Source of the DNA: Candidatus Nomurabacteria bacterium
GTDB taxonomy: Bacteria > Patescibacteriota > Minisyncoccia > Phycocordibacterales > UBA9973
DNA length: 64,000 nucleotides
Direction of reading: 5' to 3'
Assembly: GCA_023267375.1 (NCBI GenBank)
Contig: JAHFNJ010000002.1
Location: 23,634 to 87,633 of the forward strand
Shown one piece after another: positions 2,121 to 3,183 of this stretch. Every line of letters starts with the position of its first letter. Position 1 is the first letter of the stretch. The notes beneath the pieces were generated by a model. It was given only the letters and a program-made list of their open reading frames with translations. It searched no databases and was not told where the DNA came from. Both the position numbers and the translations under genes were made by a program.

Positions 2121-2732
2121 TTATTCATGATTCTCAAACCGCCTGCGTCGTTCATCTAAAGTTTCGCCCTCATAGATCCAGTAGTCCGTTCCAGTTACTG
2201 GAAAATCATAGCCGAGCATTTTTCGCGCACCTTCTGAAAGACTGGTCACTTCTCCATTGATTTCAATAGAACGAGGAGATTTTACGTCTACCACGCGAGC
2301 TTTAATATTTTCATCTCGACTGAATAGAAGTTCAGCACCGACTGGAATATTAACCATAGCGAAATTAAATCGTGATCTTTTTTTGATCGCCTGCGTCAGT
2401 GCGTGGCGATCTTCTTGGGTTTCCACCAAATCTTTTCGCGGTGTAATATTTTCAATTTCTGCTAACTTGAGTGCGGATACGACACGCTCGGGAGATATCT
2501 GGAAAAATTCACGTTTAGGATTTACCCGAATATTGTCAAAGGCATCGTGCAACTGATACTCTACGAAATTTGCATCTTTGACGGTACAGGCATAGAAGCA
2601 GGTAAACGGCAGTGGCACACTAGTAGAAGCACTCAACTCTTTTATGCGTTGCTCCAAACTGGTAGAAGTGCGCCCGATCTTCACGTATCCGGGCATTGCT
2701 TCGTTGGTTAGGATGTAAATAATTTCATTCAT
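2121..2732 (-). CDS. T5orf172 (GIY-YIG-like) domain protein with a C-terminal DUF4357-like domain
   Basis: The N-terminus reads IYILTNEAMPGYVKIGRT...EQRIKEL...YQLHDAF, the T5orf172/MUG113 signature. It is separated by 1 nt from the upstream PH-domain gene, so the two likely form an operon. Confidence 0.5.
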   Translation of the reverse strand: MNEIIYILTNEAMPGYVKIGRTSTSLEQRIKELSASTSVPLPFTCFYACTVKDANFVEYQLHDAFDNIRVNPKREFFQISPERVVSALKLAEIENITPRKDLVETQEDRHALTQAIKKRSRFNFAMVNIPVGAELLFSRDENIKARVVDVKSPRSIEINGEVTSLSEGARKMLGYDFPVTGTDYWIYEGETLDERRRRFENHE

Positions 2733-2733
2733 A

Positions 2734-3183
2734 TTATCTGTCTTTCAAACTATCGAGCTTCTTCTTGATCTCATACGGGGCTTCAACATGTTGCAACACA
2801 ACTTCTAAAGTATTTGTTCCAGCAGTATTCACGGCGATGCTTCCTGTGTGTGCGATTACTTTATCAAAAAACGGTTCTCGAATATGTATGTCCGTTATTT
2901 TTGAGTAATCAATACTGATCGTATTAGTAGAAAGCCATCCTCGATGAATTAAAACTCTTTTGTTGGTAAATGCAAAGGCATTAGCTTCACGAAGATAGAA
3001 ACCAAAATAGAAGAGAGCGATTAGAAACGTTATGATACCGATCCCTCCTGCAAACATGAACGGTAAACTTATGATCGCCCACATAATGATTCCTAGCTTG
3101 ATGTACCGCTTCCCGATTGAAAACTCATACTCTACTTTCTCATCTCCACTTAAGGTTTTATCCCAAATTTTTTGATACTTCAT
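2734..3183 (-). CDS. Small membrane protein with a bacterial PH (bPH_2/YdbS-like) domain
   Basis: It has two N-terminal TM helices followed by KRVLIHRGWLSTNTISIDYSKITDIHIREPFFDK, the bPH pattern. Confidence 0.5.
   Translation of the reverse strand: MKYQKIWDKTLSGDEKVEYEFSIGKRYIKLGIIMWAIISLPFMFAGGIGIITFLIALFYFGFYLREANAFAFTNKRVLIHRGWLSTNTISIDYSKITDIHIREPFFDKVIAHTGSIAVNTAGTNTLEVVLQHVEAPYEIKKKLDSLKDR

Follow-up and report, generated by a model that had tools for sequence, protein, structure and literature searches.

Do the two small genes that lie antisense between a terminase gene and a recombinase gene in a Candidatus Nomurabacteria genome form a dedicated defence pair, or do they merely share a slot in a mobile element? 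The genes lie near the start of a 64,000-nucleotide (nt) stretch of contig JAHFNJ010000002.1 (positions 23,634 to 87,633; all of it is referred to here as the window). The initial annotation of the window had compared a membrane protein with a bacterial PH (bPH) domain and a predicted nuclease-like protein of the T5orf172 type to a sensor and its effector; in such a model the first would sense infection or envelope stress and activate the second. We favour the second answer, and put its probability at roughly 0.6: one unit of a leader and two genes occupies 2121-3423 on the reverse strand inside a small phage-derived integrative element, the two genes are unpaired cargo, and the nuclease would act alone. 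The context, which comprises a capsid-less element, a cargo hotspot, a LOOT RNA leader and an extra helix in that leader, is more interesting than the proteins themselves. The two genes are as follows.

2734-3183, reverse strand: bPH gene, open reading frame (ORF) of 149 amino acids (aa), a bPH_2 membrane protein resembling YdbS/YdbT, optional cargo of the element
2121-2732, reverse strand: T5orf172 nuclease gene, ORF of 203 aa

Both ORFs are real genes with hundreds to thousands of homologues, and they were found where the initial annotation had placed them, in the same orientation and separated by 1 nt. The T5orf172 gene is convergent with the large terminase gene terL, with 1 nt between the two stop codons. 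The location antisense between terL (phrog_38, E 3e-76) and a recombinase, which is a large serine recombinase, was also correctly described, as were the label of PH-domain membrane protein for the first gene (a bPH_2 match, PF03703, together with a hydrophobic hairpin) and that of a T5orf172/GIY-YIG-like protein for the second (PF10544, E 2.6e-18).

Two independently distributed cargo genes

The pairing was evaluated by cross-occurrence in 80 loci of the nuclease, taken with 6 kb on either side from species-representative genomes (65-83% identity, mostly metagenome-assembled genomes of Patescibacteria), and in 80 loci of the bPH gene, taken with 5 kb on either side from metagenomes (49-74% identity). 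A bPH profile built from 28 sequences matched the ORFs of none of the 80 T5orf172 loci at a reporting threshold of E<=1, and the T5orf172 profile matched none of the 80 bPH loci; as positive controls, the profiles recovered their own anchors in 80/80 and 79/80 loci. The two genes are otherwise found together only in a further assembly of the same element (contigs L001/L163), and no bPH family is found among the 25 commonest Pfam families in the 295 ORFs that flank the T5orf172 homologues. Each gene is also found in the setting of the window without the other. In five loci (numbered L041, L027, L029, L002 and L006), T5orf172 lies directly 3' of a LOOT RNA with no bPH gene, and in the complete Campbellbacteria genome among them (L041) the order is serine recombinase, LOOT, T5orf172, terL, with the recombinase and terL on one strand and LOOT and T5orf172 on the other. 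Conversely, eight loci have the bPH gene running without intervening cargo into terL or the gene for a terS-like protein on the opposite strand, with a 4-nt overlap, and bPH is missing from all nine mini-elements located by terL rather than by either cargo gene. These data show that bPH and T5orf172 are independently distributed optional cargo and not a dedicated pair. The initial annotation had named a survey of co-occurrence as the way to check its proposal; run on these 80 + 80 loci, that survey finds no conserved pairing and no conserved neighbourhood, which refutes the pairing by the criterion that the initial annotation itself had set, and the proposed two-gene system is no conserved entity. 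What was tempting as a new two-gene defence system is thereby removed, and the nuclease is filed under PDC-S57, a family described below.

Within its Pfam family the bPH protein is unexceptional. Its match to PF03703 spans residues 69-142 (E 6e-12, 46.1 bits against a cut-off of 22), and a hydropathy scan places a hydrophobic stretch of 38 residues (27-65), a two-helix hairpin, on its N-terminal side, so that the protein reads as a short N-terminus, the hairpin and the PH domain. It also matches phrog_3707 ('membrane-flanked domain'). The YdbS/YdbT-type proteins of Pfam bPH_2 have the same arrangement of two transmembrane helices followed by a bPH_2 domain, and the homologues carry the source names 'membrane protein YdbT/YdbS with pleckstrin-like domain'; they differ from the protein described here in that the latter belongs to a compact 149-aa subfamily centred on Patescibacteria and is located on a mobile element. 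The 245 homologues are 58-77% identical to it. A search with the PADLOC profiles gave no match for bPH. We suggest that it is a small inner-membrane protein unrelated to the nuclease; protection of the envelope or superinfection exclusion would be a guess at its role.

A tightly coupled, co-oriented gene follows bPH in 29 of 71 loci. These downstream partners fall into 17 unrelated clusters, of which some are housekeeping-like and several are nucleases. The commonest co-oriented partner is a protein family with lengths of 143-314 aa and a CPxC...CxxC zinc-ribbon motif at the N-terminus; it lies directly downstream of bPH in seven loci (L085, L089, L090, L092, L094, L095 and L098) and has no match in Pfam or PADLOC. 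We considered whether bPH might be a constant sensor that is combined with variable effectors, and rejected this, as the partners are unrelated or housekeeping-like, bPH is often alone, and it is missing from the elements anchored on terL.

A T5orf172 nuclease with a predicted RAMA-like domain

The nuclease can be divided into three parts.

2448-2732, reverse strand: T5orf172 nuclease domain (GIY-YIG superfamily), residues 1-95
2361-2447, reverse strand: linker, residues 96-124, of low confidence (predicted local distance difference test, pLDDT, 44-51), with one basic helix at residues 106-119
2121-2360, reverse strand: predicted RAMA-like domain binding double-stranded DNA, residues 125-203, and stop codon

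The PF10544 match covers residues 4-89 (66.8 bits against a cut-off of 20), and MUG113 matches the same residues with 52.1 bits. The N-terminal domain has a GIY-YIG-type fold and the C-terminal domain, in the predicted structure, a RAMA fold. The initial annotation had assigned DUF4357 (PF14267) to this protein; no match to it was found at E<=10 with the whole protein or with the C-terminal half, nor is it listed for any of the 120 best homologues, whose precomputed Pfam lists contain only PF10544 and PF13455. We have therefore replaced the DUF4357 label by that of a RAMA-like domain, as suggested by the predicted structure. RAMA was defined by its fusion to N6-adenine methyltransferases and restriction-modification nucleases, T5orf172 explicitly included (Iyer, Zhang and Aravind 2016, PMC4738411). 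Its sequence conservation is poor, and it contacts the backbone of double-stranded DNA without sequence specificity (PMC9963953). The family profile gave a single, spurious match (E 0.15) among the sequences of the PDB.

Among 50 family members of 39-74% identity, Y6, K18, G20, T22, R29, E58, H62 and the stretch R74-E75-F76-F77 are invariant or at least 90% conserved. Of these, Y6 is invariant and R29, E58, H62, R74 and E75 are at least 90% conserved, whilst the second tyrosine (Y16) is not conserved. The initial annotation had suggested looking for the catalytic residues, and with the T5orf172 core conserved in this way across the family the active site looks intact.

At full length the nuclease is shown by profile matching to be a member of PDC-S57, catalogued in PADLOC as a single-gene 'phage defence candidate' (PDLC05041, E 4.6e-69, residues 2-201 of 203 against profile positions 5-208 of 212; PDLC05043, E 1.2e-51). 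The family is large: 2,766 homologues in clusters at 90% identity, the best 120 being at least 70% identical to the nuclease, and 406 clusters at 50% identity with E<=1e-30 in an exhaustive search of 1.84 billion representatives, nearly all of them of about 200-215 aa and with the same two-domain span. A scan of IMG/VR gave no relatives of this family, and cultured phages gave weak matches, mostly to the N-terminal domain. Synonymous differences between the homologues are saturated (median pS, the proportion of synonymous sites that differ, 0.83), the corresponding non-synonymous value pN is 0.18, and dN/dS, the ratio of non-synonymous to synonymous rates, is about 0.09 where finite; the guanine-cytosine content (GC) of the genes correlates with that of their loci (r 0.67). 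The family is thus an old, functionally constrained accessory gene under purifying selection. A recent selfish sweep, which we considered as an explanation for the 65-89% identity among homologues, is ruled out by the saturation of synonymous sites. A few family members, such as P0306 (498 aa) and P0385 (620 aa), have four to five tandem matches to the C-terminal RAMA-like part, and so carry arrays of DNA-binding domains. One 876-kb genome (OY969557.1) contains two T5orf172-RAMA copies in different contexts (L043 and L061), one of which adjoins an element with terL, terS, methyltransferase and recombinase.

The neighbours of the T5orf172 homologues are dominated by restriction-modification and defence functions. 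Pfam scans covered 150 immediate and 145 second neighbours of the 80 homologues; where two counts are given below, they refer to immediate and second neighbours respectively.

ResIII: 13 + 5 neighbours
N6_N4_Mtase: 4 + 16 neighbours
D12 methylase: 6 neighbours
N6_Mtase: 2 + 4 neighbours
Eco57I: 3 + 4 neighbours
EcoRI methylase: 3 neighbours
MmeI: 3 neighbours
HsdR: present among the neighbours
HsdS: 3 neighbours
GmrSD_N: 5 neighbours
Tsp45I: 3 neighbours
SduA_C (Shedu): 2 neighbours
XRE-type helix-turn-helix (HTH): 10 neighbours

An amino-methyltransferase is found no more than two genes away in about half of the 80 loci. Large genes lie upstream of the nuclease with gaps of a few nucleotides and encode Type III-like helicases, a complete Type I HsdR, Type IIG fusions, a methyltransferase, an AAA_21/AAA_15 ATPase and a T5orf172-ResIII fusion. 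The last is an 836-aa protein (L005, 3488-5995, forward strand) directly upstream of a T5orf172-RAMA homologue, which gives that operon two T5orf172 domains. On a Sphingomonas plasmid, a distant full-length homologue (38% identity) has an N-6 methylase and a BsuBI/PstI restriction enzyme as neighbours. The genes that flank the 80 homologues are heterogeneous, their 384 neighbours forming 280 clusters, and there is no obligatory partner; terL is present in only two of the 80 loci, and most are in restriction-modification operons or behind an XRE gene. The defence role that had been proposed for the pair holds for the nuclease to the extent that it is defence-like, both in its full-length match to PDC-S57 and in the neighbourhoods of its homologues; for bPH there is no such match.

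The mechanism of the earlier model can be sharpened into a proposal for the nuclease alone. The RAMA-like domain would hold double-stranded DNA by backbone contacts and possibly read the state of its adenine methylation, and the T5orf172 domain would cut the DNA. We suggest a role as a restriction-type or defence accessory nuclease, like those located beside amino-methyltransferases and Type I, III and IIG enzymes, with a functional link to adenine or N4 methylation.

The capsid-less element and its probable LOOT leader

The genes that surround the unit in the window are the following.

1-323, forward strand: 3' end of the 427-aa gene of an N6_N4 DNA methyltransferase (PF01555, PADLOC MTase_II), cut by the start of the window
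301-705, forward strand: terS-like HTH protein, of which the terS profiles match the HTH part alone; found in 22 of 25 element loci
668-2119, forward strand: terL (phrog_38, E 3e-76; TIGR01630 above cut-off), the conserved anchor of the cargo slot
3535-4854, forward strand: large serine recombinase (supported, like terL and the terS-like protein, by PHROG and NCBIfam profiles), divergent from the LOOT-bPH-T5orf172 unit and forming the other border of the slot

In a longer contig of the same element, the methyltransferase is followed on the left side by a gene of 207 aa, an AbiV-like gene and then host-like genes for a histidine kinase, a response regulator and a cupredoxin, and on the right side the recombinase is followed by an ADP-ribosyltransferase-like gene and a P-type ATPase. 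With host-like genes on both flanks, the supposed prophage is therefore an element of only about 6-9 kb without structural genes. The initial annotation had seen the two genes as phage accessory genes; they are indeed mobile-element cargo antisense to packaging genes, but no prophage with a morphogenesis module surrounds them.

The same type of element recurs at other loci (L041, L089, L112, L141, L164-L172, L177, L189 and L190, in addition to window positions 1-4854), with the layout SerRec< (LOOT>) (cargo>) terL< terS-like< MTase<, where arrowheads give the strand, brackets mark what may be missing, SerRec is the serine recombinase and MTase the methyltransferase. Among 25 element loci, the recurrent families are the terS-like protein (22), the methyltransferase (22), the recombinase (20), bPH (18), terL (16) and the nuclease (8), and no structural gene recurs. 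The element has the order DNA methyltransferase, terS-like HTH protein, terL, cargo slot and serine recombinase, and is devoid of capsid, portal and tail genes. It measures about 4-9.5 kb across the loci, and some copies have no terL. We had considered a plain terS label for the HTH protein, and have reduced it to terS-like, given that the matches are confined to the HTH part and that some elements have no terL.

The slot beside terL is empty in eight loci; elsewhere it contains a 159-aa zinc-ribbon protein, a NucS-like protein (PDC-S11/S18), a DUF4352 protein with an SNase-domain protein, or a 235-aa protein. The first set of loci was anchored on bPH or the nuclease, and a second set was therefore anchored on terL as a check. 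The closest terL relatives in IMG/VR (at least 43% identity) belong to the same mini-element, and in nine such elements anchored on terL there are between 0 and 8 unrelated genes between terL and the recombinase, none of them bPH or T5orf172. Portal- and capsid-sized genes come after terL in the more distant relatives (31-39% identity), which belong to real phages. The interval between terL and the recombinase is thereby shown to be a variable cargo slot in which bPH and T5orf172 are both optional.

The comparison class for such an element is that of phage satellites and of prophage or satellite cargo hotspots (phage-inducible chromosomal islands, P4-type hotspots). Like the satellites, the element is small, bears an integrase and has packaging genes without capsid genes, and like the P4-type hotspots it has a variable slot for nucleases and defence candidates between conserved flanks. 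Two features set it apart: a full terL, rare among the satellites known, and a recombinase of the serine instead of the tyrosine type. So compact a cargo hotspot could be searched for patescibacterial defence genes.

A LOOT RNA, which the initial annotation had overlooked, lies in the 351-nt gap that separates the recombinase and bPH genes, on the same strand as the two cargo genes. The features of this gap are as follows.

3395-3423, reverse strand: promoter-like site CTGAAA-17-TATTAT with an upstream TG; its -10 box (3395-3400) ends 26 nt before LOOT
3393-3402 and 3411-3420: inverted repeat overlapping the -10 box
3250-3368, reverse strand: full-length LOOT RNA (Rfam RF03000), 78.4 bits against a gathering score of 46.4, model positions 1-121 of 121
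3231-3244, reverse strand: conserved 3' tail GUGGUAGGUUUUUU, just past the Rfam boundary of LOOT, pairing with 3304-3319 of the same strand
3193-3236, reverse strand: spacer hairpin UUUUUUGCGUCUUA ... UAAGACGCAAAAAA, whose 3' arm stops 10 nt short of the bPH start codon

Promoter-like sites are no more numerous in the region than expected by chance. A -10-like TATTAT or TATAAT lies some 20-28 nt upstream of LOOT in most of 29 loci, and a covarying inverted repeat overlaps it. By the Rfam model LOOT is found in 11 of 18 element loci, and a model of our own, built from ten instances, finds 36 copies in the loci. Its upstream neighbour is usually the divergent recombinase. The gene that follows is co-oriented in 33 of 35 cases (bPH in 21, T5orf172 in five, another gene in seven) and mostly begins 45-90 nt downstream; in the set anchored on terL, LOOT precedes yet other cargo genes and was not found in the true phages of that set.

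The helices of the family are strongly supported in these loci: 96.3% of cells are paired, compensatory changes occur in 29 of 34 pairs, and the covariation score is 0.861 against 0.221 for shuffled and at most 0.136 for slid alignments, in an alignment fitted to the model. Folding the leader across 18 loci adds a long-range helix of 16 pairs, in which the interior of LOOT (3304-3319) pairs with the tail beyond the 3' end of the model (3231-3244, both on the reverse strand; alignment columns 60-77 with 146-163); the tail reads GUGGUGGGCUUUUUG in most loci. This helix is 96.5% paired with changes on both sides in 11 pairs, and its covariation score is 0.505 compared to 0.241 shuffled and at most 0.134 slid, for a structure obtained from the very sequences on which it was tested. 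In the window, the U-run of the tail is common to the long-range helix and to the spacer hairpin, in which its alternative partner is an A-run 10 nt upstream of the bPH start.

An intrinsic terminator after LOOT, which would favour a separate small RNA (sRNA, the type given by Rfam), was considered and rejected: the conserved U-run lies inside the pairings and no free 3' end follows. As no terminator-like feature follows LOOT, we read it as a probable conserved 5' leader that belongs to the cargo unit, and not as an sRNA of its own. The unit would then run from the -10-like box through LOOT and bPH to the T5orf172-RAMA nuclease, tail to tail with terL; no terminator-like site was found 3' of the T5orf172 gene. 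Compared to the Rfam family, LOOT appears here with a position, as the leader of co-oriented mobile-element cargo, and with the extra covarying helix; the literature we consulted, including the main text of the original description, gives no genomic context for it. These results give an orphan RNA a fixed place within a mobile element that recurs among ultra-small bacteria and suggest an extra conserved helix, and the question of its function can be framed as leader against sRNA and as switch against static fold.

The spacer hairpin may be an alternative pairing to the long-range helix, LOOT may regulate the expression of whichever cargo comes next, and it is possible that the leader is a switch. 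We tentatively raise a fuller version of this idea, and we lean against it: LOOT could be a cis-acting, switchable leader of a swappable cargo cassette in previously undescribed capsid-less elements of Patescibacteria, which are satellite-like and have a terminase and a serine recombinase. The long-range helix and the spacer hairpin would be the alternative folds that gate the next gene (bPH, the T5orf172-RAMA nuclease, the NucS-like nuclease or others), perhaps in response to infection by a helper phage or to a ligand.

Two loci have two copies of LOOT, L006 at 5826-5943 and 6819-6940 and L129 at 1066-1191 and 3644-3760. In L006 the T5orf172 gene has one copy on each flank, which suggests that successive cargo cassettes may each begin with LOOT.

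Alternative explanations, related systems and flanking genes

Several points weigh against unpaired cargo with a nuclease that acts alone. The RAMA assignment comes from a medium-quality model (pLDDT 73, predicted template modelling score 0.43) built on a shallow alignment, and the C-terminal half has no sequence-profile support, with no Pfam family at E<=10; we attribute the miss to the poor conservation of RAMA sequences. The selective binding of N6-methyladenine by RAMA was not reproduced and is disputed even for MPND (PMC9963953). An hhalign comparison of the family profile with the catalytic domain of I-TevI gave no meaningful alignment, and the catalytic mapping is for that reason left at the level of motifs. 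No paper in the literature searched mentions PDC-S57, and the PDC entries are candidates only. The surveys comprise 80 + 80 loci with flanks of 5-6 kb, some of the bPH loci are short contigs, and very divergent PH families would escape the bPH profile. Finally, the 1-nt spacing and the common leader suggest that bPH and the nuclease are probably co-expressed here, and because of this a functional link that is local to this element is possible.

The main rival to cargo that serves its carrier is a free-standing homing endonuclease, a selfish T5orf172 gene inserted beside terL to no benefit of the carrier. Phage T5orf172 homing endonuclease genes are found most often in terminase neighbourhoods (35%, PMC10448857), the position of the nuclease described here, whose gene abuts terL with 1 nt between the stops; ICP1- and T5-like homing endonucleases, Odn and CapR share its catalytic domain family. 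The sporadic distribution in highly varied contexts, the two copies in a single 876-kb genome and the tandem C-terminal domains of a few members, which recall 'beads on a string' DNA-binding arrays, also fit a homing gene. We nevertheless judge this unlikely. Saturated synonymous sites, low dN/dS and host-adapted GC indicate long-term functional selection and not a cycle of gain and decay, terL is found near only two of the 80 homologues while most lie in restriction-modification operons or behind an XRE gene, unrelated cargo occupies the same slot in other elements, and viral contigs of IMG/VR yield no relatives. The predicted C-terminal domain is a sequence-independent backbone binder and not one of the CapR/DUF723/DUF4397 zinc-finger arrays of the homing genes (PMC10448857), for which Pfam searches gave no match in the nuclease, and tblastn matches to Vibrio and Pseudomonas phage proteins have less than 60% identity and cover mostly the N-terminal nuclease domain. 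A further possibility is that the T5orf172 protein has been domesticated, no longer cuts, and regulates the element or a helper phage by binding DNA. CapR of the Vibrio satellite PLE, which is derived from T5orf172 homing endonucleases and acts as a repressor, is a precedent (PMC8096241), and the element is satellite-like, with a terminase and no capsid genes. The conservation at 90% or more of the core residues, including both conserved glutamates and the arginine, over 39-74% identity is at odds with loss of cutting, however, and most homologues lie in restriction-modification operons rather than in such elements, so that we consider a regulator of this type very improbable.

An addiction or defence pair of the restriction-modification type would have a different partner: the nuclease would cut DNA that lacks methylation by the N6_N4 methyltransferase of the element, and so keep the element in place. 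The methyltransferase belongs to the core of the element (it is present in 22 of 25 loci), amino-methyltransferases lie within two genes of about half of the homologues, the plasmid homologue adjoins an N-6 methylase, and RAMA was defined by fusions to N6A methyltransferases and restriction-modification nucleases (PMC4738411). Matched sequence specificity is implausible, however, because a conserved nuclease (65-89% identity) stands beside methyltransferases of many classes (N6_N4, D12, N6_Mtase, Eco57I, EcoRI and MmeI). Many of the loci already encode a restriction subunit of their own, and most elements have the methyltransferase without the T5orf172 gene. Moreover, phage-type ParB-like/N6_N4 methyltransferases beside terS are commonly orphan and self-protective. 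We hold this explanation, too, to be improbable. For the sensor and effector of the initial annotation, the 1-nt spacing, the co-orientation, the common leader and promoter, and the coupled followers of bPH (29 of 71 loci, several of them nucleases) can be cited in favour. They are set against the absence of either gene from all 80 loci of the other, the five loci in which LOOT leads directly to T5orf172, the at least eight element loci in which bPH is alone, its 17 unrelated partner clusters including housekeeping-like ones, and its lack of a PADLOC match; we give this model very little credence.

The closest relatives of the nuclease are the other PDC-S57 proteins, to which it belongs at the level of sequence and with which it shares a single-gene organisation, the lack of a fixed partner and neighbourhoods rich in defence and restriction-modification genes; the copy in the window is distinguished by its location on a small terminase/serine-recombinase element behind a LOOT RNA. 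The RAMA systems have the same link to N6-adenine methyltransferases and restriction-modification nucleases that is seen around the T5orf172 homologues. Compared to the RAMA nuclease fusions (PMC4738411), the protein is short, at about 205 aa, and stands alone, and its C-terminal domain has no Pfam match. It shares the T5orf172 domain with PD-Lambda-1, a defence protein that carries this domain at its C-terminus (PDLC03977, E 1.8e-9, residues 18-107 of the nuclease). Only the nuclease domain matches, and the protein is not a member of that system, the profiles of which have about 490-500 positions and a different N-terminal part.

The flanks of the element contain further genes. Just past the methyltransferase, at the probable edge of the element some 2.5 kb left of the window start, are a HEPN AbiV-like gene (PF18728) and the unannotated 207-aa gene, which correspond in the other contigs to the region of L163 9104-9733 and L001 12597-13145 (both forward strand). 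Directly after the recombinase, the gene at 5090-6841 (forward strand) encodes a protein of 583 aa that has an ADP-ribosyltransferase exoenzyme domain (PF03496, E 1.5e-10) at its C-terminus. It lies in a patch of low GC (0.30-0.33 compared to 0.42) and is found in both other assemblies of the element and in no other element locus. Further along the window, two divergent tRNA-Ser genes lie about 95 nt apart, at 9490-9575 on the reverse strand and 9671-9756 on the forward strand, the second having the unusual anticodon ACT according to ARAGORN.

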